From positions 175 through 64,174 of the forward strand of contig CAJOLY010000004.1 of assembly GCA_905235485.1 (NCBI GenBank): a stretch of 64,000 bases of DNA. Reading direction: 5' to 3'. The translations under genes and the position numbers were made by a program. Below the pieces are notes generated by a model, which had not been told where the DNA came from, made no database searches, and saw only the letters and a program-made list of their open reading frames with translations. Below, piece by piece: positions 12,784-36,016 of the stretch. The stretch's first letter is position 1. Each line of letters starts with the position of its first letter. This stretch comes from an uncultured Clostridia bacterium (lineage in GTDB: Bacteria; Bacillota; Clostridia; Christensenellales; UBA1242).

Positions 12784-12859
12784 GCGGGAGTGGCTCAGTT
12801 GGTAGAGCGTTACCTTGCCAAGGTAAATGTCGCGAGTTCGAGTCTCGTCTTCCGCTCCA
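12784..12859 (+). tRNA. tRNA-Gly (anticodon GCC)
   Basis: Acceptor GCGGGAG/CTTCCGC, anticodon stem TTACC/GGTAA with loop TTGCCAA, T arm GCGAG-TTCGAGT-CTCGT, encoded CCA. Confidence 0.95.
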
Positions 12860-12861
12860 TT

Positions 12862-12883
12862 ACAGCCTAGTGGCTGTTTTTTT
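12862..12883 (+). terminator. intrinsic terminator after the tRNA pair
   Basis: ACAGCC-TAGT-GGCTGT followed by T7. Confidence 0.75.
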
Positions 12884-12987
12884 AAAAATTTTATATAAAA
12901 TATGTAAATAATACTTGACATTTATTTTTGTTTGACATACAATAAAAATGTAAAGTAAACTTTACAATTATTAAGGGAGATTTTGTA

Positions 12988-13314
12988 ATGGAAAGAGAAG
13001 AAATTTTGGAAAAAAGCAGCCAAACTAAAAATCCAGTCGGAGAAATGGAAAAAACAAGAATCAGCAAAAGTGCGGTTATATCGCTTATTGTCGTTGCAAT
13101 TTTTGCAATTGCGTTTATAATTATTGAAGGTTTACTTGGTCATTTATCGAGCGTATATGCCATTGCAACCTTATGCTACTTGTGGGCATCAGTATTTTAT
13201 ACTCTTCAATATTTTTTGGCAAAAAGACCTTGGCAAGTGCTTATTGGAGCAGTACTTGAAGGACTTGCGGGAATTTATTTTATGATCAGATTTATCCTAT
13301 ATGTGGTGGCATAA
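12988..13314 (+). CDS. small integral membrane protein (3 predicted TM helices)
   Basis: 108-aa ORF with hydrophobic segments. It is translationally coupled to the downstream HTH gene (2-nt gap). Confidence 0.6.
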   Translation: MEREEILEKSSQTKNPVGEMEKTRISKSAVISLIVVAIFAIAFIIIEGLLGHLSSVYAIATLCYLWASVFYTLQYFLAKRPWQVLIGAVLEGLAGIYFMIRFILYVVA

Positions 13315-13316
13315 TT

Positions 13317-13526
13317 ATGGATAATAAAATAGTTTTAAAAAATAATATAAAATTATATAGAACACAACAAAATATCTCACAAGAGGAACTTGCAAAAATT
13401 GTTGGATCAACAAGACAAACAATCATTGCTATTGAAAAAGGTCAGTTTAATCCTTCCGCAAAACTTGCACTTTTAATTAGTTTGGCGCTAAATGTTGAAA
13501 TTGAAAAGTTGTTTTACTTGGAATAA
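13317..13526 (+). CDS. XRE-family helix-turn-helix transcriptional regulator (YozG-like, 69 aa)
   Basis: NISQEELAKIVGSTRQTIIAIEKGQFNPS is a classic XRE/Cro HTH. Confidence 0.85.
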   Translation: MDNKIVLKNNIKLYRTQQNISQEELAKIVGSTRQTIIAIEKGQFNPSAKLALLISLALNVEIEKLFYLE

Positions 13527-13615
13527 CTTAAAGAGGCTGAAATAAGTGTTTCAGTCTTTTTTTTAAATCTACAGTGCTTGTAAAACTTTGTAAATTGTTA
13601 TATAATTAAATTAGT

Positions 13616-14158
13616 ATGAAAATTTATATAATGCGACACGGAACAACAGTTTGGAATGAAAAGGGTATTACTCAAGGGAGAAGTCAAAACAGGTTAAGTC
13701 AAAGTGGCAAGGAACTTGTTGCACAAGTTTCAAAAAAATTTTCTAGTAATAAGATTGATGTTATTATTGCATCTCCACTTATGAGGACTATGCAAACTGC
13801 AAATATGATGAATAGATATCACAATGTGAAGATTATCAAAGATAAAAGATTGATTGAAATTGACAAGGGAATTTTTACTGGAAGAAATAGAAATAGTTTG
13901 ACAGAAAATGAAAAGTATCTTAGAAGTATAAATGACCCTATTTGTAAAATGGAAACTTATGAGCAAGTTTTTGAAAGAGTGAAATTGTTTTTTGATGACA
14001 TTAAATCAAATTGTAAGTTTAAAAATATTTTGGTTATAACACACGGAGTGGTGGCAGGTTTTTTGGAAATTATTATAACTAAAAAAGAATTTGATATAAG
14101 TACAAAAGGAAATATTAAGAAATTTAAGAATGCAGAAATCAAAAATTTTGAAATATGA
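13616..14158 (+). CDS. histidine phosphatase family protein (phosphoglycerate-mutase-like)
   Basis: N-terminal catalytic motif IMRHGTTVWN and a downstream conserved His (ITHGV). Confidence 0.8.
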   Translation: MKIYIMRHGTTVWNEKGITQGRSQNRLSQSGKELVAQVSKKFSSNKIDVIIASPLMRTMQTANMMNRYHNVKIIKDKRLIEIDKGIFTGRNRNSLTENEKYLRSINDPICKMETYEQVFERVKLFFDDIKSNCKFKNILVITHGVVAGFLEIIITKKEFDISTKGNIKKFKNAEIKNFEI

Positions 14159-14162
14159 ATAT

Positions 14163-14186
14163 AAAGCACTATAATGGTGCTTTTTT
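14163..14186 (+). terminator. intrinsic terminator
   Basis: AAAGCAC-TATAATG-GTGCTTT plus a T-run. Confidence 0.7.
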
Positions 14187-14287
14187 GATTAAGTTTATTT
14201 ATAGTCAATTTTTGTTGCCAAGCCGGACTAATGTCACAGCTTTCTTGGGTGGAGATTTCACTCACTTTGTTCGTAGAAACAAAAAAA

Positions 14288-14307
14288 AGTAAGTATTGCT
14301 ACTTACT
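14288..14307 (-). terminator. displaced ancestral tRNA-Leu terminator just outside the distal att repeat
   Basis: AGTAAGTA-TTGC-TACTTACT (8-bp stem) is followed on the minus strand by T8. It lies 1-2 nt beyond the duplicated tRNA 3' end. Confidence 0.6.
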
Positions 14308-14308
14308 C

Positions 14309-14321
14309 TGGTGCCGAAAGC
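14309..14321. repeat. att core direct repeat (distal copy; duplicated tRNA-Leu 3' end)
   Basis: Exact 13/13 match to 18858-18870. Confidence 0.8.
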
Positions 14322-14360
14322 ACCGGCAAAAAATTCAAAAAAGTCAGTAACATGTAGCAC

Positions 14361-14422
14361 TTTGACACACTTTTTAGGGTATAAAATTAAAATTGTTTTT
14401 CAACCTGTTTGACACACTTTTT
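14361..14422 (+). repeat. two copies of TTTGACACACTTTTT (candidate integrase arm-type sites, distal arm)
   Basis: Copies at 14361-14375 and 14408-14422 have the same sequence and orientation as the triple tandem at 18721-18760. Confidence 0.6.
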
Positions 14423-15025
14423 ATCCGGTCCAATAAAATATATGTTTATCTTCCTAAAAATGCACTTATATTTTAAGTGTATTTTTATTTGAGTTAAAAT
14501 AATATTTTTTTAATATAAAAGTAAGTTAAAAATATCTAAAAATATAAAAAATCACTGTCAAATATTCCGTTAGTATAGATACAGAAGAAATTGCCTTTTC
14601 AAGGCCCTTTCTTTTGTATCTATTGAGTGTTAACATAGCGAATATTATAAGCTTTGTGATAGCATATTTTTTTTTGTCTTTGTGGTAGTATAAGTATAAG
14701 TTTATATTACAACTTTTTTAAAGTGATATTATCAGCTTGAGTAGTAGTTTAATATATGAGTTAACATTCAAGGCAGTCAGCGCACTTGTGCTTAATCTGA
14801 CTGCCTTTTTTGAGTTTGTCGATAGAGCAAACTAACTCCGTAACAATCAACAATTTTGTAAAATGTTTGTGAATTAGTATAAATTTTGCCCAATAAAAAA
14901 ATACATTGTACTACAAGGATGGCAAATAAGCAAGTTAATTAGCCAAGAAAAACACAATGTATTTTTATCAATTAACAAGTCATATAACAAAAGTTAGATT
15001 TTTATAGGTTGTTAACTTGTCAAAA

Positions 15026-15043
15026 GGTTGCGATGTCGCAACC
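15026..15043. terminator. bidirectional hairpin terminating the element's leftward operon
   Basis: GGTTGCGA-TG-TCGCAACC perfect stem flanked by CAAAA and ATTTT. Confidence 0.6.
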
Positions 15044-15141
15044 ATTTTCAGATAAGTTGCAAATCTTTTCAAAAGTCATAAACTAACTAATAGTATTATG
15101 ACAAAAATAAATGTTTGTCAACAATTTTTTGAAAAAAAGTT

Positions 15142-15801
15142 TTATTTTTTAAAAAAATTTTGTTCAACATAATTATTTTCTATCAAAATATATTTTAAAT
15201 TTGTTTTAAATTGTTCGATAGTTAATCTTATAAGTTCCCTAGTGACATTAAATTTTCTGCCAATATCAGCAAATGAATAACCCTCTATAAATAAATCAAT
15301 ATATGCTGATATATTATCAGCTTTGCGAATTTTTCCGAATTTTGTTAAGCAGTTTTTTTGCTTTGCTAGTTCAATATATTTTTTTAATGTTTCATAATTT
15401 ATATTTGATTCTACATCATCATTAGACGCAATATAATTAGCAAATGTACCATCATCATCACCTATTTCATAATCAAGTGATAAATTTGCTTGTAATTCAC
15501 CTTTTAAAATTTTGTTATGTTTTAATCCATTACCAAAACGAAAATAAGTACCAACACGAGAACGAAAAACACGAACAATATATGTAGCATAAGACACATT
15601 TTTTGATATATCAAATTTTAATCTATAATGTGGAGCATATGAAATAACATATGCGAAAACATCACTATACAAAGTTTTATTTATACAAATATTTTTAAAA
15701 AACTTATGTAAAGTAAAATATAAAAGCTTACAATCTTCTTTATAATTTTCAAGAGTGTAATTTTCATTTTTTAATGAAACTAGTTTACTACCCATAGTCA
15801 C
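15142..15801 (-). CDS. sigma-70-family-like protein (divergent regions 2 and 4) carried on the integrative element
   Basis: DVFAYVISYAPHYRLKFDISKNVSYATYIVRVFRSRVGTYFR resembles sigma region 2. The C-terminal LFIEGYSFADIGRKFNVTRELIRLTIEQ resembles the region 4.2 HTH. Confidence 0.5.
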   Translation of the reverse strand: MTMGSKLVSLKNENYTLENYKEDCKLLYFTLHKFFKNICINKTLYSDVFAYVISYAPHYRLKFDISKNVSYATYIVRVFRSRVGTYFRFGNGLKHNKILKGELQANLSLDYEIGDDDGTFANYIASNDDVESNINYETLKKYIELAKQKNCLTKFGKIRKADNISAYIDLFIEGYSFADIGRKFNVTRELIRLTIEQFKTNLKYILIENNYVEQNFFKK

Positions 15802-17340: not shown

Positions 17341-17723
17341 GAGTATTTATCTGATAACCCCAGCAAAGCAAGTTTGCAAGGGTTAAAAATATTTTACTCT
17401 ATCAAAGTTTTGTAAAATTTTTTACGTGTTTATCTCCCGTAAGGCATAAAGCACTAGAAAAATTTGACAAAACAACAACCGAGAGAAAAAAAGGAGTATT
17501 AAAAATAATGTATACAAAATTAGATGAAACATTTTTTTAATACAAAGCACTTACAGAGCTAGAAAACAGCGAGAGAAACAAAGTTGCTTTAATCAGCAAG
17601 CTTGAAATGGAAGTTGCCGAAACTATGGGCAAAATTAAAATATTTAAACAAGTTTGCGAGCAAGCACAAACACAAAATAAAAGTGTTGTTATACCTACAT
17701 ATTTACTACCAAAGGGGGAAAAT

Positions 17724-18725
17724 ATGAAAGGAATAACAAAAAGAAAAGACGGGCGATATATGATAAGACTTGCAATAGATGGGCAAAAAGTATATTATTA
17801 CGCAAGCACATTTGCACGAGCTAAAAAAATACTAGAACTTTTAAAGCAAGAGCAAAAAAAATACAAAAGAGAAAAAAAGCCTGTAAAAAGACCAACAAAG
17901 AAAAAAGGCTTAACATTTAATAAATTTGCTGATAAGTGGTTAGAAACTTACAAAAAGCCATTTGTTAATAACCGAACTTTTAGCGATATAAAATCATTTA
18001 TCAATAGAATTGGTAAAGAACTAGGCGATTACACATTAAAAGAACTTGACGCATTTATAATACAAGAATATTTTAACAAGTTGCCAAAAGGTAGAACAAA
18101 AGAGAAAATGTTTACTTATTTTAATTCTATGTTACAAAAGGCTTGCGACTTAGATATTATTACTAAAAATCCATTTAATGCAGTTGTAAAAGATAAAAAA
18201 GTAAAATGTAAAAGCAATGCATATACTTTTAGCGAACAAGTTAAAATATTACAAGCAATAAAAAATACTGATATTGAACACGAAATTTACGTTTATTTAA
18301 TGTGTGGATGTAGACCAAACGAACTACCAAAAAACAAAGACTTCGATTTTGAGAATAATATTATTAATATTTATGGAACTAAAAACGATAATGCAAAGCA
18401 TAGGCAAGTAGAAATGAGCAAAGTGTTTGCAGAATATATGAAAGAATATTTTAAAATTCACTACATGCAAAATGCAAAATATATATCAACTAAATTTATT
18501 GAAATTTGTAACAAGTTAAAAATTAATAAGCCTTTAATTTATAAATTAAGACACACATTTGCAACTAATCACTTTACACTAGGAACTCCAACAAAGCAAG
18601 TGCAAGAATGGTTAGGGCATAGCAGTATATCAATGACTTTGGATCAATACACAGATATTGATAAGACTGCAACAAAAGAAAAAATAAGAGAACTCTATAA
18701 CCATTTTTATTATGAAAAAATTTGA
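17724..18725 (+). CDS. int: tyrosine-type site-specific integrase
   Basis: The N-terminus MKGITKRKDGRYMIRL is a typical arm-binding domain start. C-terminal catalytic residues are in context (LRHTFAT, WLGHSSISMTLDQYT). AGGGGGA RBS. The in-frame upstream extension to 17607 cannot be excluded. Confidence 0.85.
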   Translation: MKGITKRKDGRYMIRLAIDGQKVYYYASTFARAKKILELLKQEQKKYKREKKPVKRPTKKKGLTFNKFADKWLETYKKPFVNNRTFSDIKSFINRIGKELGDYTLKELDAFIIQEYFNKLPKGRTKEKMFTYFNSMLQKACDLDIITKNPFNAVVKDKKVKCKSNAYTFSEQVKILQAIKNTDIEHEIYVYLMCGCRPNELPKNKDFDFENNIINIYGTKNDNAKHRQVEMSKVFAEYMKEYFKIHYMQNAKYISTKFIEICNKLKINKPLIYKLRHTFATNHFTLGTPTKQVQEWLGHSSISMTLDQYTDIDKTATKEKIRELYNHFYYEKI

Positions 18726-19226: not shown

Positions 19227-19862
19227 ATGTTAGATTTTATTAAAGACCATTGGCTTTTATTTGTTTTGATATTTATTTTACTTGTGCTTATTATTATTTT
19301 GTTGGTTGTTGCTCACAATGTAAAAAAGAAAAACCGAATAGAAGATGAGCTTGAAAGAGCAAGAGAAGAAGAGCAAAAGAACAAGAACAGGGTTAAGCCA
19401 ATTTTAAAAGAAAATTTAAAAAATAAAAAAGCAGAAGAAAAACAAAAAGAAAAAAAAGAGCAAAAGAATGTAGTTCAACCAAAAAAGGAACTTGTTGAAA
19501 AACAACCTGAAAGCAAAAAAGAAGAGAAAGAAATTCAAATTAAAAAAGAACACAAAAAGCAATCTGCTTCTCAAAAGAAACCTATGGAAAAGGAAATAGT
19601 TAAAAAAGAGCAATTGGAACAAAAACAACCAAAAAAAGTTGAGGAAAAGCAGGAAGAAAAGAAAATAAATGAAAATGAAACTTATAGAGTTGTATATGAC
19701 AAAGAACAAAAAAATTGGATAGTTCGTATTGATGGTGGTCAAAGGGCAAGTAGAAGATGCGCTACAAAAGAGGAAGCCTTAAAAGTTGCAAAAGAATTAG
19801 CAAAGAAAAAAGATGCTGATTTGAGTGTACATAAAAAGAATGGAAAATTTCAAAAGATTTAA
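19227..19862 (+). CDS. membrane-anchored K/E-rich protein with C-terminal DUF2188-like domain
   Basis: N-terminal TM (WLLFVLIFILLVLIIILLVV), a long KEEK low-complexity linker, and a C-terminus YRVVYDKEQKNWIVRIDGGQRASRRCATKEEALKVAKELAKKKDADLSVHKKNGKFQ of the DUF2188 pattern. Confidence 0.6.
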   Translation: MLDFIKDHWLLFVLIFILLVLIIILLVVAHNVKKKNRIEDELERAREEEQKNKNRVKPILKENLKNKKAEEKQKEKKEQKNVVQPKKELVEKQPESKKEEKEIQIKKEHKKQSASQKKPMEKEIVKKEQLEQKQPKKVEEKQEEKKINENETYRVVYDKEQKNWIVRIDGGQRASRRCATKEEALKVAKELAKKKDADLSVHKKNGKFQKI

Positions 19863-25169: not shown

Positions 25170-26243
25170 ATGAAAAACGGGATAAAATTATTTTTTGCAA
25201 TGTTGGCAATTTGTGGTAATTTTGCACTTACTGCTTGTGGACGTAATCACAAAACCCCAACCACATCAACGCCACCAATAGCCGAAACAACGGATGAAAA
25301 AAACACAATTGAAATGCCAGATACAGTAATAATCCCTTCGACATCAAATAAAACTGAAGATCAAACTGTTAACACTGAAGATCAAACTGTTAACACTGAA
25401 GATCAAATTGATCAAGCTGAAAAGCAAAAAGAGCAATTAGGAATCTTGGAAAGTGCAATCGAAAATCAAATTAAAGAAAAATTAAACTTTAAATTTGATG
25501 ATGAAATTGTTTCAAATGTTGATATAAAATATTTTGATTTTGAACAAGATAAGCAATACAATACCACTTTTAGCGCAAACGGAACATTAACTTTTGTTGA
25601 TGATGAAAATGAGTATTCATTTAGATTGGGAATGTCACTTGAAGGTGATGACTTTTTGAATGTTAGTCCACTTTATTATGTTGATATTGACGAAACAAAA
25701 GATTTGGCAGAAAATTATAGCATAGACAACTTAACAGCAGTAAATTCTTATCTTGAAAATCCAGAAATAACTTTTTCAAAAGCAACATTAAATGGTCAAA
25801 ATTGGAATTTGGATGTTTTAACACCTGCCAAAATTGAAACAACTTTGGAAGAAGAATACGAACAAAATGCAAATCAGTTTTTTCTGAACAAATACAATGA
25901 AAGCTATGTTAAAGATATTGATTTTAAGTATATTTCAGTTGTTAATGATGCAGATTATGGATATTTACTTGAATTAAATGGAAATGCAATAAATATCTAC
26001 ACAGAGAAACAAATGCCTTTCACAGTTTCTTTTAGTATAAGTGAAGAAAACTATAACAAATTGAAAAATGAAATTTTAATAACTTCATATGACCAAAATC
26101 TTGATTTAAAAGATAATTACACAGCAGAACAATTAAACAAAGTTTTTGAAATTATTCAAGATGAAGAAACTTATTTAAGGTTATATGTAATAAATAATGG
26201 CAATTATGCAGTTCAGTCAAAAGATGTTGATTTACAAAAGTAG
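25170..26243 (+). CDS. lipoprotein, function unknown (two related internal domains)
   Basis: Signal peptide with lipobox LTAC-G, a TEDQTVN tandem repeat, and two segments of about 130 aa sharing the pattern D(I/F)KY...NG...F..S.S. Confidence 0.7.
   Translation: MKNGIKLFFAMLAICGNFALTACGRNHKTPTTSTPPIAETTDEKNTIEMPDTVIIPSTSNKTEDQTVNTEDQTVNTEDQIDQAEKQKEQLGILESAIENQIKEKLNFKFDDEIVSNVDIKYFDFEQDKQYNTTFSANGTLTFVDDENEYSFRLGMSLEGDDFLNVSPLYYVDIDETKDLAENYSIDNLTAVNSYLENPEITFSKATLNGQNWNLDVLTPAKIETTLEEEYEQNANQFFLNKYNESYVKDIDFKYISVVNDADYGYLLELNGNAINIYTEKQMPFTVSFSISEENYNKLKNEILITSYDQNLDLKDNYTAEQLNKVFEIIQDEETYLRLYVINNGNYAVQSKDVDLQK
25353..25408 (+). repeat. 21-bp tandem repeat ACTGAAGATCAAACTGTTAAC, about 2.7 copies, in-frame (TEDQTVN)
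   Basis: Two exact units at 25353-25373 and 25374-25394, plus a partial third. Confidence 0.9.
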
Positions 26244-26260
26244 GTTATGCCTACTTTTTT
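26237..26260 (+). terminator. intrinsic terminator after lipoprotein 1
   Basis: GTAGG-TTATG-CCTAC with flanking A and T runs. Confidence 0.6.
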
Positions 26261-26359: not shown

Positions 26360-28675
26360 ATGCAAAAAAATGGCAAATTGAAAAGAATTTTTATGTTTTT
26401 GATTGCTTTGGTGATGTTTTCATCACCTGTTTTGCTTGCAGGTTGTTCTCTTTTTGATTTTTATCCATCAAACAATAATGATTCGTCGCAAACACATAGT
26501 GGAAATGGAAACAATGGAGGAAACACTTCAGGAGGTAGCGGCTCAGGGGGAAGTGGTGGCAGTGGAAGTAGTTCTGAGGCTCAACCAACCACCACAATTT
26601 ATGACCCACCAACCAAAAATAGAATTTTACTAGATGAATATGATGAATATTTCAAGAATTATAGAATAACTTACAAACCAGGCGAAGTTGATAGAAAAAG
26701 TTTTGATGATGAAATCGTGGCACAAAATCAAAATATTGCAAGACTGGTTTTAAATGGACTATATGATGAATACGGAATAAAACAATATCAGGCACATCCA
26801 AAATTACATAATGATATCGATAATATTCAAATTGAAAATAAATATTTAGCATATGCTAATCAAGATAATGAATTTTTTTTGATTAGGTTAAATGATAATA
26901 ATATAAAGAAACCTTTTACTCACGCAAATGCAATCAACAATGATAGTTTAAATAATGATGAAACTTACAATTATTGGCTTTGGAACACTAACACTAAAGA
27001 TGATAACAACACAGTAACACTTACTAATGTTTCAAAAGAAGAATTTGAAAACGCTGAATTCAAAGCAAAACTTGAACTTGCAGAACTTTTGATACTTTCA
27101 GGTGAAACAATAAATGAAGATGGCAGTGGAACTTTTGCTTATGCCTATAAAACATATTTTGTTGATAATGACACAAAAAAATCATTAAGTTCTAATTATT
27201 TTGAAAATGACAAGTTAAAAGCAGATGCACTTGATGATGTTATTTCAAAAATAAATCATTTAGGATACACTGAACACGACCAAAGTCAACTCAAAAATTT
27301 TGTGCTTAATTACATAATTGGAACAAATTTGGTTAATGCTGATAATCATAGATTTGTTAATTGTTATTATGATGGCAGTCATATTCAAATTGTTAATGAT
27401 TCAAATTATAAAAGATTTTTAACTGATGAAACTTATGCAACAGGCAGAATAATTGGTGACACAATTGGTTTTAGCACTTCAGATAGTGATGATGGCAGTT
27501 TGCTTGGATTGATGTATTATGCAAGCCAATACTTAATATCAACTCAAAATCCAAATTATCAATTTGATGTGTATACTAGCACAAATCCATTTATTGCAAA
27601 CGAAAATAATACAACAACAACTTCAATAAGTTATTCAAATTATAATTTTGACAGTAATGTTAAGGACATTTATGATGCAATTTATAACAATCTCATCAAT
27701 GTTGCAGGGACAAAAGTTAAATTAGATGAATTTGGCAATGCTGAAAAAGATGAAAATGACAATATTATTTATGAATTCAACTCAAATGTTTGGGGATATG
27801 ATGCAAATGGCAATGTAAATTCATTAGATGCAACAGACACTGTTGAGTATAGCGTTGGAACAGGAAGCAATAAAAAAACTTATTCACTTTTTAGTGTTAG
27901 ACTTCCATATTTTAAAAATTATTACAATACTGTTAGTTTCATGATTCGTGATATGTTTCAAGACGAGCCTTCGGCTCAAACAAGAGCAGAATGGGAAAAT
28001 GAGCATGGTTTTGAATATCCTTATGATTCCAATTTTCCAAATGTTCCTTTAAGTTATTTTTCAGATTTCAATTCAGATGAAATGCTTATGGACGATAACC
28101 TAAACATCATTATGAAAGATGCAGGATATCAGTCGTATCAAAGCTTTTTGATAATGCCAAGTCAAGATATTTATTTGAAAGATGCAACGATATGGTTTGA
28201 TGCATCGTCTGGTTATGAATCTGAAGAAAGCAATTTGGAAATTACTTTGTATGCTAGGTATTATGATAAAGAGTCAAAATCTTATGCCGTTTGGGAAAAT
28301 GATGATGGATACACTGAGTTTTACAAAATAGGTACTGTTAATGTTCCATTTATAAATGAATATGGGGACTGTGAATATCTTGACATAGATTTGAGAGAGA
28401 TTCTTGGCAATGCAATTATAAATGGTGAACAAAAAGCAAATTATTTACTCAACGAATTCAATACACCAACTGAAACTGTAGATAAAAAAACCTTAATATC
28501 AAAAGAAAACTATGGCTATTGGTTTGACTATGGCACAACCCCAGAAGGCAAAGAAATTGTGTGCTTTAATGGTAAACTTGCAAATAGCTCAAGTTATCTT
28601 GAAATTGTATTTTACACTGAGTCTGATGCACCATTTATGTTCTCATTTTGTCCAGAAACAAGTTATAAAGTATAA
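26360..28675 (+). CDS. large lipoprotein (771 aa), function unknown
   Basis: Signal peptide with lipobox LLAGC-S, a Gly/Ser/Asn-rich linker, and an N/D/Y-rich body with no recognisable catalytic motif. Confidence 0.7.
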   Translation: MQKNGKLKRIFMFLIALVMFSSPVLLAGCSLFDFYPSNNNDSSQTHSGNGNNGGNTSGGSGSGGSGGSGSSSEAQPTTTIYDPPTKNRILLDEYDEYFKNYRITYKPGEVDRKSFDDEIVAQNQNIARLVLNGLYDEYGIKQYQAHPKLHNDIDNIQIENKYLAYANQDNEFFLIRLNDNNIKKPFTHANAINNDSLNNDETYNYWLWNTNTKDDNNTVTLTNVSKEEFENAEFKAKLELAELLILSGETINEDGSGTFAYAYKTYFVDNDTKKSLSSNYFENDKLKADALDDVISKINHLGYTEHDQSQLKNFVLNYIIGTNLVNADNHRFVNCYYDGSHIQIVNDSNYKRFLTDETYATGRIIGDTIGFSTSDSDDGSLLGLMYYASQYLISTQNPNYQFDVYTSTNPFIANENNTTTTSISYSNYNFDSNVKDIYDAIYNNLINVAGTKVKLDEFGNAEKDENDNIIYEFNSNVWGYDANGNVNSLDATDTVEYSVGTGSNKKTYSLFSVRLPYFKNYYNTVSFMIRDMFQDEPSAQTRAEWENEHGFEYPYDSNFPNVPLSYFSDFNSDEMLMDDNLNIIMKDAGYQSYQSFLIMPSQDIYLKDATIWFDASSGYESEESNLEITLYARYYDKESKSYAVWENDDGYTEFYKIGTVNVPFINEYGDCEYLDIDLREILGNAIINGEQKANYLLNEFNTPTETVDKKTLISKENYGYWFDYGTTPEGKEIVCFNGKLANSSSYLEIVFYTESDAPFMFSFCPETSYKV

Positions 28676-28750: not shown

Positions 28751-28987
28751 ATGGCAGTATTTCAATTAAATCAATTGATGGGAATCGGCGAGTTCTTTAG
28801 CGAGTTTTTTAGAAGTATTTGGGAACTTATTGGCCGCGCATTTTATTGGTTGATTATTTGTGCAATTGGTAGAATTGCTGATATATGTCAACTAATTTTC
28901 CGTAAGTTTGCTGGTATTTCAAATACTGGTGTACAGATTACTGAAGGTGGAGTTACAACTCAAGTTGATTCTTGCTTTTATCAATAG
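28751..28987 (+). CDS. N-terminal piece (78 aa, 1 TM) of the VirB6-like membrane protein, or a separate small membrane protein
   Basis: Strong RBS AAGGAG and an ATG start. It ends in a TAG that lies inside the open downstream frame. Confidence 0.6.
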   Translation: MAVFQLNQLMGIGEFFSEFFRSIWELIGRAFYWLIICAIGRIADICQLIFRKFAGISNTGVQITEGGVTTQVDSCFYQ

Positions 28988-31118
28988 CAACATCGTTAAA
29001 AACTTGTTTTTTGCATTGCTTATCCTTGCAATTGTAATTTTACTTATCACAACTTTTGCAGCAACAATCAAAACTGAATTTAATAAGGATGGCAACAATA
29101 ATAAAAGAAAAGTTATAAAAAATGCATTTAGAGGCCTTGCAAACTTTGTTCTTGTTCCACTAATTTGCTTTTTTGCTTTGTTTGTTGGCAATATGCTTTT
29201 AAGAGCAATTGATGGAGCGACAAGCGGTGGTAGTTCTGTTTATTTATCAAGACAAATGTTTATGGCTGGTGCATATAATGCCAATCGTGTGAGACAAGAT
29301 GAAGTTGAAGGTGAAGATGCAGTCAGATATAAGGAGACAAGTGATGATCATTTTTCTTATGGGGCACTTATTGTTGGAGTAGATGGTAGTGGCACTGGCT
29401 ATGGTAATTTTGGAATTTTCATTGACGATACTTCCGGAAAAAACCAAAGACGAGCTGCTGATAAGATAGATGATTTTTTTGCTAATGGTTACTCGATTAC
29501 TATTGGTAGTGGTGTCTTTAATGGTGATGAATATTCTAAGATTATAAATAAAAAAAGGGTATCAGATGTTAGTTTTTCGTCAGGCGATTCAGCAAATGCA
29601 AATACTTTAGCGTTCAAAGAAACCGAGTTTTATAATGGTGGAAAGGGAATGAAGATTGCAAGTAATGTTAATTTTTTACATCAAGGAGAAAATGAAGAAG
29701 TAGAAAATAAAAAAGTTGCTGCAAAAACTGGAATGATTACTTTTGAAGAAGGCGACACTGTTTATTTTTCAATTTACAACATTGGATTGGTCTATTATTA
29801 TTATGATTTGACGCTAACTGGATTTAATTACATAATTTCTGCAATTGCATTGTTCTTTTGCGCTTGGGTTCTTATAGTTACCGTTTTAGGACTTATCAAA
29901 CGTATATTTATGTTGTCAACATTGTTTATAATTTCTGCACCAATTTGTGCAATTTATCCTTTGGATGATGGTAAGGCGCTGGAACAATGGCGAAAAGAAT
30001 TTATCAAAGAAACATTGTCGGCTTATGCAGTTGTTGTTGTTATGAATATATTCCTGGCTTTGTTGCCTTTGATGTCAAAAATGAATGTATTTGTTAGTGG
30101 TGAACTATGGATTTTTACAGGTTTTGCAAATCATATTGCAAGAGTACTTATTGTGGTTGCAGCCTTAACATTCTTTAAAGATGCAACAAAAACAATTGCA
30201 TCATTGATTGGCGCTGGAGATTCATATGATGCTGGAGATGGCGCAAAGAAAAATTTCGCAACAAATGTTGGAAGAGTTGCAGCAGGTGGTGCAGTTGCTT
30301 TGGGTACAGGAGCTTTGGTTGGTAAAGGTATTGGTAAACTTATTGGCTTAGGAGCTGGTGCAGTAAGCAAAATGAAAGATAATAGCTTTGCAAAAAGCGC
30401 TGCTAGCAATGAATTGGCTAGACGACAAAAGGCTTTGGAAGAAGCAGGAGTTGAAGGGAAAGCTGAGAATTCTACAGATGCTATAGGTGATGGCTCAACA
30501 TCAATGAATTCCTCAAATGCTTCTAATGTTGTTCAAACTCAATCTAATCCAAATTCTGCAGTATCTAACTCAATGAATAATAACACTGCTCAAAAGGATA
30601 AGCCAATAGATTGGCATTATGAAAGAAAAAAAGCGCAATATGAAAAAAGGCGTAATAATAGAATTACAAGTCTAGAAGCTCGTTATGACAAAAAAACTTC
30701 ATTAGTAGATGGAAATATTGAACTAGAAGATGAAGAAAAGAAAAAAATGAATGAAAAATTAACTAATAAATTGAAAAGGCGAAAAGAAAGAGTTAATAAT
30801 AGGCTTGATAAAAAGGAATATAACTTGACTGATGAAGGTATTAAAGAAAGAAATAAGAAAAGAACCAATTTCATTAAAAAAGTCAAGGATAACCATTTCA
30901 CCAGATTTGTGGGTGGAACAGTGGATGCTATTAAAGGCATTGCAAAAGGCGACTTAAATATGAAAGAGGCTTGGAAAGATTCAACTACCAAAGGAAGCAA
31001 AGCATATAGAGATAAACAACAGAAAGATGCTGAAAAGAAAAAAGCACAAGTTGAAGCAAAACAAAGAGAAGAAATGCTCGAAACCCTTAAGAATATTGAA
31101 AAGAATAGTAAAAAATAA
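28908..31118 (+). CDS. polytopic membrane protein, VirB6/ConG/TrbL-like architecture; start unresolved (probably joined to 28751 by a frame change)
   Basis: At least 6-7 hydrophobic helices, an external loop of about 200 aa, and a long K/E/R-rich C-terminal tail. There is no ATG and no good RBS in the first ~95 codons (only TTG at 28908 and 28965). Confidence 0.6.
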   Translation: MLVFQILVYRLLKVELQLKLILAFINSNIVKNLFFALLILAIVILLITTFAATIKTEFNKDGNNNKRKVIKNAFRGLANFVLVPLICFFALFVGNMLLRAIDGATSGGSSVYLSRQMFMAGAYNANRVRQDEVEGEDAVRYKETSDDHFSYGALIVGVDGSGTGYGNFGIFIDDTSGKNQRRAADKIDDFFANGYSITIGSGVFNGDEYSKIINKKRVSDVSFSSGDSANANTLAFKETEFYNGGKGMKIASNVNFLHQGENEEVENKKVAAKTGMITFEEGDTVYFSIYNIGLVYYYYDLTLTGFNYIISAIALFFCAWVLIVTVLGLIKRIFMLSTLFIISAPICAIYPLDDGKALEQWRKEFIKETLSAYAVVVVMNIFLALLPLMSKMNVFVSGELWIFTGFANHIARVLIVVAALTFFKDATKTIASLIGAGDSYDAGDGAKKNFATNVGRVAAGGAVALGTGALVGKGIGKLIGLGAGAVSKMKDNSFAKSAASNELARRQKALEEAGVEGKAENSTDAIGDGSTSMNSSNASNVVQTQSNPNSAVSNSMNNNTAQKDKPIDWHYERKKAQYEKRRNNRITSLEARYDKKTSLVDGNIELEDEEKKKMNEKLTNKLKRRKERVNNRLDKKEYNLTDEGIKERNKKRTNFIKKVKDNHFTRFVGGTVDAIKGIAKGDLNMKEAWKDSTTKGSKAYRDKQQKDAEKKKAQVEAKQREEMLETLKNIEKNSKK

Positions 31119-31128
31119 TAATTTTTGG

Positions 31129-31161
31129 AAAGAGGATAATGAAAATATATCCTCTTTTTTT
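31129..31161 (+). terminator. intrinsic terminator
   Basis: AAGAGGATA...TATCCTCTT stem plus T-run. Confidence 0.75.
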
Positions 31162-31180
31162 AAAAAGATAGTGATTTATT

Positions 31181-31209
31181 TTGCAAAAAATAAAATTATC
31201 ATATATAAT
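31181..31209 (+). promoter_or_regulatory. sigma-A-type promoter TTGCAA-17-TATAAT
   Basis: -35 at 31181-31186 and -10 at 31204-31209 with exact 17-nt spacing, about 40 nt upstream of the ATPase start. Confidence 0.55.
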
Positions 31210-31249
31210 AATAATACATTATTTGAACAAAATAAATAAGAGGTTTTTT

Positions 31250-33931
31250 ATGATTAGATATATCCCTAGAAAAACAAAAATAAGAATGGAACTTTTACCT
31301 CATGTAACATTGCCTGATGTTATTGTTGGTGTTTTTGCCATTGCAATTCTTATTTTGATTATTACAAGTAATTTGCCATATAAATGGTTTATTGCACTTT
31401 CAGTTCTTGCATTTGAAGTTTTGTTATATTTCCCTGTTGCAGATGGTGAAAGAGCATATTACACAACCATATTATTATTTAGGTTTTTTGCATTCAAGAA
31501 AAAATATTCTAGAGATACGCTAAAGGGTTATGAAAACGTTAATAAGTTAATTCCATATCAACATATATTGGAAGAAAGATTTCTTGATTATGGCGAATAT
31601 TATGGCATGGTTTTGCAAATCACACCTGTCGAATTTTTTCTTCTAACAGAAGATAAACAGGACGCATACATTAGAAGTTTTAAAAACGCACTTGCTCGTC
31701 TCAACGTTGACCAAGATTGTGAACTTGTCAAAATCAATAAAGCAGTTTTGTATGATGACTACATAGCAGATGATGAAAAGAAATATTCTGCTCTTATGGA
31801 AGCAGCAGAGCAAGGTGAAATTACTCAAAAAGAACTTGATGGTAGAACTTATGTTTTCCAATCTCGAGTTAAACAATATATTGCCGCAAATGAAGAAAAT
31901 AAAATGTATGAAGATTGCTTTTATCTTGTTGTGTTTGATAAAGATAAAACTGCTCTTTATGACACAATGGAAGGTCTTCAATCAGCACTAGCTGGTGGTC
32001 AAACGCCGATACATAGCAAAATTTGTATGGCAAAAGATCTTTCAATATTCTTAAAAGCAAACTATACAAAAGAGTTTGACGAGCGAGAAACAGAAGCAAA
32101 AGGTTCAGAAGGTCTTGTTGAATGGACAATGCCTGAAAAAGTGCAATTTAAAACAGCTCAAACGTTGATTGATGGAAAAGCATATAGGCATTTTTGCATC
32201 ACTGATTATCCTCTTCAAGTTGGTAATGCTTGGGCATATAATATCTTTGCAATGCCAGCAACAAAATGTGTTGTAAAAATCAAACCAATGATGCGTTTTG
32301 ATGCTGAAAAGGAAGTTGATAAAGCCATTTTGGAAATGGAAACAAAAACAATGTATTCTGCTCGTGAAAGTAAGCAAATTGAAAATGAAACTCATCTTCA
32401 AACACTAAGACAACTTTTGATCGATATCAAAAACAGCAATGAAAATCTTTACAAATGCAATTTTTTCATCACTTGTGAAGATTATATGAAAAAAGAAATG
32501 AGAGCACTTCTTAAACAATATGGGTTTAAATATTCAGAAATGTTTGGTCGTCAAGTTGATGCTTTTGTAAGTAGTAATATTTCAAGAATCAACACAGTAA
32601 AGGAACATGTACGTGGAATCAATGGAACTCCGCTTTCTGGAATGTTTCCGTTCATTTCGAACACAATAAGTGATCCTGGTGGTTTCTATTTAGGATATAA
32701 CGCAAATGGAAGAGTTTTTGTTAATTTTTTCAGACGTGACGAAGAACGTGTAAATAGTAATATGATGGTTATTGGAAAATCAGGTGGAGGAAAATCGTTT
32801 GCCACCAAAAACATTCTTTCTAATATGGCAGGCGACAACAGCCGAATTTTCGTTCTTGACCCTGAAAGTGAATATGTAAATTTGGCACATAATTTAGGTG
32901 GAAAAACTATTGATGTTGGTAGTGGACTTCAAGGAAGAATCAATCCGTTCCATATCACACCTAGTTTGAAAGGCGATGATGACAGTGAGGTAGCTCTTGA
33001 TGATTATTCTGCACATTTGCAATTTTTGGAAGAATTTTTCCACATTATTTTGGCTGGAATCAATAGTGACGCATTTGAAAAAGTTAATAGTTTGGTTATT
33101 GAATGCTATAAAAATAAGGGAATTGATAGTGACACTGATCTTACAAAGTTAAAGCCAGAAGATTTTCCAATTTTTGACGATTTGTATGCTTTAATTTTAA
33201 GAGATATAAATAAGGAAAAAGATGAATATATCAAACGTATTTATCAAACTATGGAGCTTTACATTAAAAAATTTGCAAAAGGTGGAAGAAATTCAACTCT
33301 TTGGAACGGTCCAACAACACTCGAAACAAAAGAGAACTTTGTTGTATTTAGTTTCCGTTCACTTCTTGCGAACAGCAATAAAACTCTTGCAAACGCACAA
33401 ATGTTGCTTGTTTTGAGATATTTGAACAATGAAATTATTAGAAATAAAGACTACAACACTATGATGGGCTATGGTGAAGCTGACCCTGGAAGAAGAAAAA
33501 TTATCGTTGCAGTCGATGAAGCCCACGTGTTTATTGATGAAGAATATCCAATTGCTTTGAACTTTATGGAAGACTTAGCAAAACGTATCAGAAAATATGA
33601 TGGAATGCAAATTATTATCACTCAAAACATTAAAGACTTCGTTGGTTCAACTGCAATTCAAAAACAAAGTACAGCAATCATTAATGCGAGCCAATTTACA
33701 ATGGTTTTGCCGCTTGCTCCAAATGATATGAGTGACCTTGTTGAACTTTATCGAAATGCAGGAGGTATCAATACTGACGAGCAACAAGCTATTGTTCAAG
33801 CTACTCGAGGTGAAGTTTTCTTTATCACATCAGCCAATTCTCGTGTATTCCTAAAAATTGAAGCGCTTGACGATATTAGGCTTATGTTCCAAACAAAGAA
33901 TTTCTTTGAAGAAAGAAGTAAAGCCTCTTAA
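31250..33931 (+). CDS. VirB4/ConE/TrsE-family type IV secretion ATPase with fused N-terminal two-TM (VirB3/PrgI-like) segment
   Basis: N-terminal TM hairpin (VIVGVFAIAILILIITSNL; WFIALSVLAFEVLLYFPV). Walker A MVIGKSGGGKSFATK, VLDPESEY, Walker B IVAVDEAHVFID, IIITQNIKDF, and a C-terminal RGEVFFI. AAGAGG RBS before the ATG at 31250. Confidence 0.8.
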   Translation: MIRYIPRKTKIRMELLPHVTLPDVIVGVFAIAILILIITSNLPYKWFIALSVLAFEVLLYFPVADGERAYYTTILLFRFFAFKKKYSRDTLKGYENVNKLIPYQHILEERFLDYGEYYGMVLQITPVEFFLLTEDKQDAYIRSFKNALARLNVDQDCELVKINKAVLYDDYIADDEKKYSALMEAAEQGEITQKELDGRTYVFQSRVKQYIAANEENKMYEDCFYLVVFDKDKTALYDTMEGLQSALAGGQTPIHSKICMAKDLSIFLKANYTKEFDERETEAKGSEGLVEWTMPEKVQFKTAQTLIDGKAYRHFCITDYPLQVGNAWAYNIFAMPATKCVVKIKPMMRFDAEKEVDKAILEMETKTMYSARESKQIENETHLQTLRQLLIDIKNSNENLYKCNFFITCEDYMKKEMRALLKQYGFKYSEMFGRQVDAFVSSNISRINTVKEHVRGINGTPLSGMFPFISNTISDPGGFYLGYNANGRVFVNFFRRDEERVNSNMMVIGKSGGGKSFATKNILSNMAGDNSRIFVLDPESEYVNLAHNLGGKTIDVGSGLQGRINPFHITPSLKGDDDSEVALDDYSAHLQFLEEFFHIILAGINSDAFEKVNSLVIECYKNKGIDSDTDLTKLKPEDFPIFDDLYALILRDINKEKDEYIKRIYQTMELYIKKFAKGGRNSTLWNGPTTLETKENFVVFSFRSLLANSNKTLANAQMLLVLRYLNNEIIRNKDYNTMMGYGEADPGRRKIIVAVDEAHVFIDEEYPIALNFMEDLAKRIRKYDGMQIIITQNIKDFVGSTAIQKQSTAIINASQFTMVLPLAPNDMSDLVELYRNAGGINTDEQQAIVQATRGEVFFITSANSRVFLKIEALDDIRLMFQTKNFFEERSKAS

Positions 33932-33937
33932 AATTAG

Positions 33938-33970
33938 AAAAAAGCAAACAATGATTTTGTTTGCTTTTTT
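33938..33970 (+). terminator. intrinsic terminator
   Basis: AAAAAGCAAACA-ATGATTT-TGTTTGCTTTTT. Confidence 0.8.
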
Positions 33971-34140
33971 CTGTGGAAATATAAAAAAATTTTAATTATT
34001 GTTATAAAAATTGCAAAAAAACAGCATTTTTTCTGTTTTTATTTAAAAAATTTAATATTTTTTCAATTTTTTTATAAAAGAAATAAAAATTTAAATATGA
34101 TTATCATTTTTATAAATATAAAAAAATTTTTGAATGGCTA

Positions 34141-34195: not shown

Positions 34196-36016
34196 ATGCC
34201 TATTGAAAAGAAAAAGAAAAAAGATCAAGAACATGAAGTTCTTTCAGTTGTAAATAACTTTGATATTGCAAATCAGGTAAATGATGTTGCAAGTTCAGAT
34301 GTAATTGATATGATTAAAAATAAAAAAGGTGTTTATGAAGTAAAAAAAGCACAAAATTTTGCACAAGAAAATATAAAAAGTGATGACGACATTTTTAACT
34401 CAGATGATTATTTTTTTGACATCGATAAAAATAAATTATTGGATTTAAATAATTTATCAAAAAATGATGCTAAAAATGATGCTCAAGAATCTGATGATGA
34501 TTTTAATGCATTAGTAAATGAAAAATTCAGTGAGATAATTAAAGCGGATAAAGAAAAAAGTGATAAATTCATTGCAGGCTTGAAAGCATCTCATCCAAAT
34601 GATTATGACAGTTATGTCGAAAAAATTAGAAAAACGAAATATTACAAAAAATGCCTTGATAAATGGACTAAATATTATTCAGATTTGAAGCAAAAATGTG
34701 CAGAAGATCTACAAAATGAAATTGAAGTTGATGCAAAAAATCAAGCATCAAATTTGGCTGATGTAAAAGTTGCTGTGCCACAAATAAAAGAACAATCACA
34801 ATTAAAAGACAATGAGATTCCAAAGGAAAATACAGTTACACCTCCAAGTTTAGAACTCAATATTGACGAACTAGATGCTTCTAGTTATGTTCGTTTAACA
34901 TCTAAAGGTGGCTTGCCAGTTGATTCAAAATTAGTGGCAACAGTTCAAGATGTTTTACTTGATGCTTTGTATAAAAGTTTCCAAGAAACAAGCGATTATT
35001 ACAACAGTTTGAGCGTCTCTCCAAAACTTGCAAAGAAAAATGTTTCTACTGTTGATTTTAGAAAAGAACTTTCAAATAATTTACAGCAAGTTCATAACAA
35101 AGTAATTCCAAATCAATCATCACTTGATATTGCGAATATCAAAGTAATTCAAAAGGATATTGAGGAGCGTGCTGGGGTTAATATGAATGCATTTTCAACT
35201 GCTGAAGTATTTGTAGACAAGTTGTATCATATTGATCTAACAACAAAAGAAGTTTCTGGAATGATTCCTGATTTAGCTTTAGATTTATCAGAAAAAATTC
35301 AAGACATACTAATCTCTAATGGTGTGCCATATTTTAACATTACAAAAGATAATGTTATCGGAATTCTTGATAAAATGGTTGATGATTCAAAACTTGGTGT
35401 GACTTTAAAAGAAGAAACATCAAAAGACAATGAAAATTTATTAGATCTAAAAGCTGGTAATAGGCTTTTGAAAAATACAAATAAGATCGATATTATTTTC
35501 AATTACTTAACTGAGAATTATTTGGAAGATGCATCAGATGCAATGAATGATAACAAATTATCACAATTTAATTATTCAGATGAAAAAGTTAATAATACAT
35601 TAAAAGTAATTTCAGACAGTCTTTTTGGCACAAATACATTAGATATCATTACTTCTAATATAATGGAATGCTTGTCTTTGAGTATTGGACAATGGCTCGC
35701 TTTTGATTTAAAAAATAATGTGAAGCTGAAAAATGATGCCGAATTGGTTAATTTGGTTAAAAAGTTTAATGAGGTAATAAACGCTAATATTGACAAGCTA
35801 ACTATTGATGAAGATAAGAAAGCAACAGCTAACTTGTCTGAGGAAGATAAAAAGATAGCTGCACAAAATCAAGATAGAGCTAAAAAAATTATTTCTGAAT
35901 ATAAAGCTTTGCATGAAGTAATTGTTAATAAAAAATATAAATTACAAAGAGAAGAAGAAATCAATGTAAAAGATAAAATTAAAGAAGTTTACAATAATAA
36001 ATCTGTTGATTTATAA
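34196..36016 (+). CDS. acidic D/N/K-rich 606-aa protein, function unknown (no signal peptide, no TM)
   Basis: Long ORF with a strong RBS and no recognisable motif. Confidence 0.6.
   Translation: MPIEKKKKKDQEHEVLSVVNNFDIANQVNDVASSDVIDMIKNKKGVYEVKKAQNFAQENIKSDDDIFNSDDYFFDIDKNKLLDLNNLSKNDAKNDAQESDDDFNALVNEKFSEIIKADKEKSDKFIAGLKASHPNDYDSYVEKIRKTKYYKKCLDKWTKYYSDLKQKCAEDLQNEIEVDAKNQASNLADVKVAVPQIKEQSQLKDNEIPKENTVTPPSLELNIDELDASSYVRLTSKGGLPVDSKLVATVQDVLLDALYKSFQETSDYYNSLSVSPKLAKKNVSTVDFRKELSNNLQQVHNKVIPNQSSLDIANIKVIQKDIEERAGVNMNAFSTAEVFVDKLYHIDLTTKEVSGMIPDLALDLSEKIQDILISNGVPYFNITKDNVIGILDKMVDDSKLGVTLKEETSKDNENLLDLKAGNRLLKNTNKIDIIFNYLTENYLEDASDAMNDNKLSQFNYSDEKVNNTLKVISDSLFGTNTLDIITSNIMECLSLSIGQWLAFDLKNNVKLKNDAELVNLVKKFNEVINANIDKLTIDEDKKATANLSEEDKKIAAQNQDRAKKIISEYKALHEVIVNKKYKLQREEEINVKDKIKEVYNNKSVDL

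Follow-up and report, generated by a model that had tools for sequence, protein, structure and literature searches.

How does a VirB4-type motor come to carry what is usually a separate membrane subunit of a type IV secretion system (T4SS), and why does such a fusion lie among the housekeeping genes of an uncultured bacterium? This question is raised by an open reading frame (ORF) at 31250..33931 on the plus strand of a 64,000-nucleotide stretch, hereafter the window, of contig CAJOLY010000004.1 from a Clostridia bacterium of the Christensenellales (assembly GCA_905235485.1). An earlier note on this DNA, made from the letters alone, had described the product as a VirB4-type ATPase with a fused VirB3/PrgI-like hairpin. 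Our analysis indicates, with a probability that we put at roughly 80%, that the ORF encodes the VirB4 motor of a monoderm (Gram-positive/Mollicute-type) T4SS with PrgI/VirB3 fused to it, and that it belongs to a long-resident chromosomal cluster. What is new beyond the earlier note is the setting, namely a core-like chromosomal T4SS-type cluster with hypervariable surface parts in a large uncultured clade of gut Clostridia.

The reading frame is complete and runs exactly from an ATG at 31250 to a stop codon at 33931, encoding 893 residues. As the earlier note had stated, it has its own ribosome-binding site (AAGAGG, 31238..31243, plus strand), separated from the ATG by a 6-nucleotide spacer. 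The accompanying claim of an own promoter and terminator held for the terminators. A hairpin with a U-run at 31127..31162 (plus strand), which resembles an intrinsic terminator of the upstream VirB6-like gene, folds at 31127-31159 with a predicted free energy of -12.4 kcal/mol (z -3.0 against 200 shuffles). Directly 3' of the stop codon, a terminator-like 17-bp hairpin with A-tract and U-tract (33935..33973, plus strand) reaches -20.2 kcal/mol (z -7.1), and none of the shuffles folds equally well. A simple terminator scan detected neither hairpin owing to its loop-length and GC-pair thresholds. For the promoter the claim is much weaker: the site at 31181..31209 (plus strand; TTGCAA, a 17-nucleotide spacer and TATAAT) matches the consensus at 10 of 12 positions, which is suggestive of a promoter, and promoter-like sites in the AT-rich region around the ORF are not commoner than in shuffled sequence.

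The true start does not lie at an internal methionine past the hydrophobic region, a possibility that had been raised with the original claim. The PrgI homology described below begins at residue 2-4 of the 893-residue protein, and a motif IPRKTKVK, located upstream of Met13 (the only nearby internal methionine), is kept at the extreme N-terminus of the homologues. Judged by this conservation, the annotated ATG at 31250 is the right start. Two other starts were considered and rejected: Met13 has no ribosome-binding site and would drop the conserved motif, and a TTG at 31181 would give a longer ORF that crosses the promoter-like region, with the N-termini of homologues starting at M-x-x-IPRK.

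Most of the protein is a VirB4 ATPase, as originally proposed. Pfam matches are confined to the P-loop region (residues 501-820; P-loop_TraG, DUF87, which is the HerA central domain, and AAA_10), and the VirB4 N-terminal domain (residues ~96-470; 31535..32659, plus strand) gave no Pfam match, PF03135 included. This domain was delimited with the CD1110 model and by Foldseek alignment to full-length TrwK/VirB4. The C-terminal P-loop ATPase domain (residues ~471-893; 32660..33928, plus strand) follows from Pfam, from 4ag5 and from the template-modelling score (TM-score). A search of PDB sequences retrieved 4ag5, the VirB4 C-terminal domain of Thermoanaerobacter pseudethanolicus (E 3e-50), in which both nucleotide-binding motifs are aligned: Walker A, GKSGGGKS (residues 509-516; 32774-32797, plus strand), and Walker B, DE (residues 756-757; 33515-33520, plus strand; aligned as DEAH). 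The residues of the Walker motifs are invariant in 32 homologues. Among NCBIfam models, NF045975 (Mbov_0397 family, VirB4_plasma) scores 556.9 bits and aligns residues 23-874 to profile positions 25-887 of 894, the CD1110 VirB4 model scores 161.9 bits and aligns from residue 98, TraC is weaker, and VirB4_CagE reaches 81 bits.

Structural comparison agrees with this assignment and bears on a different explanation, in which the protein is a HerA/FtsK-type translocase that acts outside secretion (in defence, DNA repair or chromosome segregation) and was mislabelled on the strength of its P-loop. Pfam by itself would allow it, since its three families are the only ones found; HerA and SIR2-HerA structures are among the Foldseek matches, and in many related genomes no T4SS gene adjoins virB4. 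An AlphaFold2 model built on 32 homologues (predicted local distance difference test score 78, predicted template-modelling score 0.66) nevertheless has full-length TrwK/VirB4 of the R388 T4SS as its best Foldseek match (8rtd_T, E 1e-25, 908 columns, TM-score 0.53/0.58), with a target TM-score of 0.88 to 4ag5. HerA matches are no better than 6e-12, so that the E-values of full-length VirB4 structures are lower by a factor of over 10^13, with both domains aligned. In addition, VirB4-specific NCBIfam models match end to end, a VirB6-like gene adjoins virB4 here and in 25 of 81 loci, and VirD4 and pilin genes lie close by in relatives. We therefore give a translocase outside secretion hardly any weight. 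Residues ~96-893 thus have the VirB4 fold of two domains, and their catalytic site appears to be intact.

The segment in front of this ATPase has the layout that had been described for its first ~90 residues, two hydrophobic helices followed by a basic stretch. The module (residues 1-95; 31250..31534, plus strand) was delimited by hydropathy, charge, AlphaFold2 helices, hhalign and a PrgI hidden Markov model (HMM). It consists of the N-terminal motif IPRKTKIRMEL, a first transmembrane segment (residues ~21-41; 31310-31372, plus strand), a second one (residues ~45-63; 31382-31438, plus strand), both assigned from hydropathy, an amphipathic helix at residues 69-81 and the basic stretch FKKKYSR. 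Just two hydrophobic peaks are found in the whole protein (Kyte-Doolittle, 19-residue windows), at residues ~20-42 (2.7) and ~46-64 (2.0), so that the proposed check of transmembrane topology returned two segments, and AlphaFold2 places helices at residues 21-39, 45-58 and 69-81. Lysine and arginine number five in the N-terminal 19 residues and eight in residues 63-100, and the loop between the transmembrane segments is 6 residues long. This distribution fits a hairpin with both ends inside, which would leave the ATPase in the cytoplasm. A length of about 100 residues, two transmembrane helices, short cytoplasmic ends and a C-terminal alpha-helix are also the features by which PrgI/VirB3 proteins have been described (PMC12857230).

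The module further occupies the place of a prgI gene. On pBMB68, a plasmid of Bacillus thuringiensis, a relaxase gene is followed by VirD4, a hypothetical gene, one of TrbL/VirB6 type, a 111-residue PrgI family gene and VirB4, an instance of the separate small gene just upstream of virB4 that the earlier note gives as the usual case. In the window, the hairpin lies in this slot between the VirB6-type gene and virB4: it is in frame with VirB4 and has the VirB6-like gene in front, the adjacency seen for PrgI-type genes. The pBMB68 PrgI and the window module share the pattern IP(K/R)xxKxxxEL, two transmembrane helices, a G-containing turn and a basic amphipathic helix. PrgI of pCF10 and its family (PF12666), which correspond to VirB3 in monoderm T4SSs of the MPF_FATA type, resemble the module in their ~100 residues with two transmembrane segments and a C-terminal helix, their conserved N-terminal IPK..K..FE motif and their virB6-virB4 slot, features that fit the published description of VirB3 homologues (PMC12857230). 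Unlike the module, which is covalently fused to VirB4, PrgI of pCF10 is encoded by a separate gene beside a separate VirB4, PrgJ.

Profile comparisons argue that this resemblance reflects homology. A word-indexed search with the B. thuringiensis PrgI yielded four homologues, all annotated PF12666; with their alignment as the seed, 1.84 billion representative proteins were searched exhaustively by HMM, and the 250 significant matches superseded that small yield. A profile of 117 free-standing PrgI proteins from among them was compared by hhalign with the fused family's profile (residues 1-112) and matched it with a probability of 96.8% (E 2.2e-10) over 88 columns, covering window residues 2-89; against just the four initial PrgI sequences the value was 89%. 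The match also covers parts outside the membrane, namely IP(R/K)xxKxxxE(F/L) before the first transmembrane segment and G-x-x-x-(L/Y) with a basic stretch ending in Y after the second. The PrgI HMM, built from the same 117 proteins, matched the N-termini of all 120 fused homologues with 8.5-38.7 bits (median 18.2), and in the controls composition-preserving shuffles reached at most 10.6 bits (95th percentile 3.7) and reversed sequences at most 9.3. Because the module combines this profile homology with its place after the VirB6-like gene and ahead of the rest of VirB4, its reading as a PrgI/VirB3 homologue fused to VirB4, beyond mere likeness of layout, is supported, with the homology seen at the profile level only. 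Since the best 150 of the 250 PrgI-search matches are 62-167 residues long, except for one of 333 residues, the fused form probably represents a distinct, distant branch of the PrgI family. A search of PDB sequences with the N-terminal profile returned a PHD-finger as its sole match (E 0.32), which was discarded as spurious.

Homologues show how far the fusion extends. The 120 best homologues in a collection of 5.8 billion proteins are 871-1103 residues long and share 52-100% identity with the query across 98-100% of its length; the hairpin is present in all sampled N-termini, so the fusion is not an assembly artefact. The PrgI HMM also matched the N-termini of three Mollicute VirB4 proteins with 14.5-22.8 bits: those of the M. 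hyopneumoniae integrative conjugative element (ICE) and a Spiroplasma ixodetis plasmid, both annotated as Mbov_0397 family, and one from an S. citri plasmid, annotated DUF87. Fusion of a PrgI-like segment to the ATPase in one ORF, as the earlier note had it, is thus seen across the family and beyond. The protein is a monoderm, PrgI-type version of a known kind of VirB3-VirB4 fusion, and is shared with VirB4 proteins of Mollicute ICEs and plasmids. Neither a Christensenellales T4SS nor a PrgI-VirB4 fusion turned up in literature searches, and the PrgI type has apparently not been described as such in the searchable literature.

The nearest known relatives are the members of the Mbov_0397 family (NF045975), which comprises CDS17/TraE of mycoplasma ICEs and Spiroplasma plasmid VirB4s. 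The window protein matches this family end to end, hairpin included, the M. hyopneumoniae, S. ixodetis and S. citri N-termini share the match to the PrgI profile, a gene for an Mbov_0396-type membrane protein lies directly upstream, and related Clostridia clusters contain pilin-like genes and VirD4; in the M. hyopneumoniae ICE, the order is pilin-like, Mbov_0396, Mbov_0397. The differences are as clear. Identity to the Mollicute proteins is 24-27%, compared with at least 48% within the Clostridia group, the window uses the standard genetic code, and the cluster has housekeeping flanks (nth, obg and yhbY to one side, rpsB, tsf and frr to the other) in which neither a DDE transposase nor any other ICE backbone gene occurs. 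Among the downstream proteins, NCBIfam models for Mbov_0398/0399 found no match. In a 2025 FEMS review of T4SS nomenclature, the VirB3-like proteins named for mycoplasma ICEs are CDS13 and CDS15, and the N-terminus of CDS17 goes unmentioned (PMC12857230).

Fusions of VirB3 and VirB4 are known from Gram-negative MPF_T systems, such as CagE of Helicobacter pylori, Campylobacter plasmids and pVT745 (PMC4643968, PMC4027160), and an engineered Agrobacterium VirB3-VirB4 fusion was expressed, as PMC4643968 relates from Mossey 2010. The window protein is like these in principle, with a VirB3-like segment of two transmembrane helices at the N-terminus of VirB4. It differs in scoring 81 bits on VirB4_CagE as against 557 on the Mollicute-type model, in an N-terminus related to the PrgI family (Gram-negative VirB3, compared by its Pfam model only, gave no match), and in belonging to a monoderm envelope without the outer-membrane core of VirB7, VirB9 and VirB10. 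Because both the VirB4 lineage and the affinity of the N-terminus differ, the PrgI-VirB4 fusion most likely arose independently of the CagE type. A parallel in setting is the chromosomal, relaxase-poor MPF_FATA-like T4SS of Patescibacteria; a 2025 study of it looked for fusions of VirB3 with VirB4, and its dataset contained none (PMC12102498). That system is likewise of monoderm type (VirB4, PrgI, VirB6, a pilin-like protein and a coupling ATPase) and lies on the chromosome beside housekeeping genes of uncultured bacteria, with no relaxase nearby; it belongs to another phylum, however, and host dependence has been documented as its role in a Saccharibacterium only.

The fusion gene is one of six in a cluster between yhbY and rpsB, together with genes for two lipoproteins, a VirB6-like protein, a 606-residue protein and an 82-residue protein, all on the plus strand. 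The first gene (25170..26243) encodes a predicted surface lipoprotein of 357 residues (lipobox ALTAC-G), identified from sequence, and the second (26360..28675) another one of 771 residues (lipobox LLAGC-S), which has no Pfam or NCBIfam match; both are hypervariable. The VirB6-like gene (28752..31118) directly in front of virB4 encodes a polytopic membrane protein with ~13 hydrophobic segments, assigned to the Mbov_0396/MMCAP2_0566 family through the intact 792-residue version on L001, an otherwise near-identical contig from another sample (NF045848, 138.6 bits, cutoff 90; NF045889, 102.7 bits, cutoff 70). Compared with L001, the window also has one single-nucleotide polymorphism inside virB4, at 32521, and a 1-bp indel at 26247, which is intergenic and lies just past the first lipoprotein gene. 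Downstream of virB4 follow an acidic, soluble 606-residue protein (34196..36016), whose position is held in related clusters by a large, very variable protein, and a conserved 82-residue protein that travels with the cluster (36055..36303), neither of which matches a known family. The 82-residue protein occurs downstream of virB4 in 18 related loci at 31-79% identity, and this conservation suggests a constant part of the cluster that has gone unrecognised.

Related loci encode further T4SS components. In relatives whose VirB4 is 59-69% identical, VirD4, a small T4SS_pilin/Mbov_0395-like membrane protein and a giant protein of 2,400-2,800 residues are encoded directly upstream. Their VirD4 belongs to the CD1115 family (296.7 bits, cutoff 250) and their pilin to T4SS_pilin (PF18895; 32.2 bits, cutoff 26.6); both are among the adjacent genes in L036, L089, L090 and L092, the giant protein adjoins VirD4 in L089 and L090 and the pilin-like gene in L092, and this module order is that of the M. 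hyopneumoniae ICE. A different giant of ~3,300 residues, which bears a lipoprotein signal peptide and lacks Pfam domains, is encoded directly after virB4 in 22 related genomes (for example L031, L038, L047, L051 and L081, at L081:12743-22724). Pfam and NCBIfam searches of the large proteins 3' of virB4, the lipoproteins and the 2,400-3,300-residue giants found no domains and no relaxase; the giants may be adhesins or substrates of the system. The earlier suggestion that the fusion tethers the motor in a minimised apparatus without partner genes was overstated: immediately in front of the fusion stand the genes for the VirB6-like protein and two lipoproteins, and in close relatives genes for VirD4 and a T4SS pilin are found beside them as well. 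At the other extreme, virB4 has no adjacent T4SS gene in L060 (L060:5872-9783, following rpsM-rpsK-rpsD-rpoA-rplQ) or in L021 (L021:6697-9932, following nifS-nifU-gpmI). Many loci (types B-D) have no adjacent VirB6-like gene, which implies that the remaining apparatus is encoded elsewhere or that the ATPase has additional roles; in lineages with a lone virB4, either the components are dispersed over the genome or only the ATPase has been co-opted.

Several observations weigh against the reading of the ORF as a PrgI-VirB4 motor of a working T4SS. At the level of the ATPase, the score on the nearest curated family, NF045975, falls narrowly short of its cutoff of 590 bits, and the protein is best treated as a sister subfamily rather than as an equivalog member. 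At the level of the cluster, no VirD4, pilin or relaxase gene was found in the window; tblastn of the relatives' VirD4, pilin-like and lipoprotein sequences against it retrieved the VirB6-like and 82-residue genes only. The VirB6-like frame is broken after ~72 codons by an 11-bp deletion at 28969, so the function of the apparatus in this strain is not guaranteed. The missing bases are TGGTGATATTG, present as L001:7709-7719, and the deletion may reflect variation between strains, a phase-variation-like indel or a fault in the assembly. TGA recoding had been considered as the cause of the stops in this gene and was dropped: the deletion relative to L001 explains them, with no variant genetic code. 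At the level of the module, the window protein itself scores 11.9 bits on the PrgI HMM (residues 4-86), barely above the best shuffle, so that the conclusion on PrgI rests on family-level evidence. The Pfam models PrgI, VirB3 and TcpE gave no match to window residues 1-110 and 1-500 at E<=10, and PrgI weakly matched only 2 of 27 family N-termini (E 0.015). The proposed alignment to PrgI and VirB3 profiles therefore succeeded against the 117 PrgI proteins and failed with the curated models, for which the module is too divergent. Foldseek with a separate AlphaFold2 model of residues 1-112 found no VirB3 structure (best E 5.7), as short helical hairpins are below its reach.

These last results are what would be expected if the hairpin were a generic membrane anchor of independent origin, with a superficial likeness to PrgI/VirB3, the more so as transmembrane segments inflate profile scores through compositional bias. 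The hhalign match, however, includes parts outside the membrane, and the composition-preserving shuffles and reversed sequences scored far lower; the module also sits in the exact gene-order slot of prgI. A generic anchor is thus very unlikely, and the fused PrgI/VirB3 homologue remains the preferred reading of the N-terminus.

The surroundings of the cluster are those of an ordinary chromosome. Upstream lie priA, fmt, rarA, fakA, nifS (cysteine desulfurase), nth, obg and yhbY, and downstream rpsB, tsf, frr, uppS, cdsA, rseP, polC, rimP and infB. Two observations were made on these flanks. A tyrosine recombinase of the phage-integrase family (17607-18725) and a DUF2188 protein (19227-19862) are encoded ~7.5 kb upstream of the cluster, parted from it by cysteine desulfurase, nth, obg and yhbY and with no evident link to a T4SS. 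Ribosomal protein S2 (36449/36557-37501) has a lysine- and glutamate-rich C-terminal extension of ~80 residues past its conserved domain. Relatives of the VirB4 were found in at least 541 genomes in a pattern scan with one genome per GTDB species. The best 80 of them, 48-85% identical over the full length, are uncultured Clostridia or metagenome-assembled genomes of Christensenellales type from human, ruminant, rabbit and chicken guts. Housekeeping genes are the neighbours in all contexts inspected, among them greA, comEC-holA, fba and hflX besides the ribosomal and nifS-nifU-gpmI loci named above, and a downstream block of fba-pepM29 (peptidase M29)-gapA-TM2 is common to loci whose VirB4 is 87%, 69%, 67% and 59% identical to that of the window.

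Divergence was examined against L091, a syntenic relative of the window genome with counterparts of the lipoprotein genes and the 606-residue gene at L091:3261-7152 and 12814-15189, respectively. VirB4 is 87.2% identical between the two, Obg 85.3%, the 82-residue protein 79% and YhbY 66.7%, followed by the VirB6-like protein (47%), the 771-residue lipoprotein (40%), the 606-residue protein (31%) and the 357-residue lipoprotein (28%). Within VirB4 itself identity rises from 78% in the PrgI module to 85% in the N-terminal and 92% in the C-terminal domain. The overall pattern of divergence fits long vertical residence, with strong constraint on the motor and fast diversification of what are presumably the exposed parts.

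It might still be asked whether virB4 belongs to an ICE, or to the decaying remnant of one, amid housekeeping genes. Mbov_0397 and Mbov_0396, the nearest curated families, are ICE families; VirD4 and pilin genes in related clusters recall conjugation modules; a tyrosine integrase ORF lies upstream; and the frameshift in the VirB6-like gene is what decay would give. Against this, four housekeeping genes separate the integrase from the cluster, and in six loci inspected, the 10 kb around showed neither relaxase nor transposase nor integrase. The flanking synteny is kept across lineages with widely differing VirB4, the divergence of VirB4 follows that of Obg, the region does not stand out from the window in GC content, and the best match among 72,556 PLSDB plasmids is only 27% identical. 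The frameshift, finally, does not occur in the other sample's assembly of this contig. We regard an ICE or its remnant as unlikely: the cluster is long resident on the chromosome of gut and rumen Clostridia of Christensenellales type and is no recent insertion of a mobile element.

How the fused protein might work can be sketched by analogy with R388, in which the inner-membrane protomer contains one VirB3, two VirB4 and three VirB8 tails (PMC9259494), and VirB3 (TrwM) contacts the N-terminal domain of the central, inner-ring VirB4 (TrwK) as well as VirB6 (TrwI) (PMC9259494). The hairpin would be inserted with both ends in the cytoplasm and would dock the ATPase hexamer at the membrane, beneath the VirB6-like channel protein, where ATP hydrolysis would power assembly of the apparatus, translocation of substrates or both. 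Fusion would fix VirB3 and VirB4 at 1:1, and no separate small protein would need to be co-expressed or co-stabilised. With this ratio forced, either each subunit of a double ring would bear a hairpin, or the architecture of the ring would be unlike that of R388. Candidate substrates are DNA, as in mycoplasma chromosomal transfer, or proteins. Given the VirD4 and pilin of relatives and the likeness to the modules for chromosomal transfer of mycoplasma ICEs, export of DNA or protein to another cell is the most likely role, on analogy. An ATPase constrained like Obg, combined with fast-changing lipoproteins and VirB6-like protein, is the pattern expected of a contact-dependent system and not of plasmid spread. 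Contact might then serve chromosomal DNA exchange, as in mycoplasmas, or dependence on a partner cell, as proposed for Patescibacteria. More tentatively, as a possibility that we rate well short of even, the fusion may be a hallmark of a T4SS-like machine that is passed on vertically and has become a core envelope trait of a large clade of gut and rumen Clostridia.

VirB3 is the least understood of the essential T4SS subunits and is hard even to identify in monoderm systems. A natural PrgI-VirB4 fusion, present in hundreds of species and in the VirB4s of Mollicute ICEs and plasmids, pinpoints the VirB3 equivalent in those systems. It gives a VirB3:VirB4 ratio of 1:1, compared with 1:2 in the R388 inner-membrane protomer, and as a single polypeptide it would be convenient for structural work on the T4SSs of Gram-positive and wall-less bacteria. 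It also suggests that the assignment of VirB3-like proteins in mycoplasma ICEs be revisited: if the fusion is indeed the hallmark of a core trait, their VirB3 function would lie within CDS17 and not in CDS13 or CDS15. For the Clostridia themselves, the core-like conservation of the cluster on the chromosome points to an unstudied system of cell-to-cell transfer or interaction in abundant inhabitants of the animal gut.

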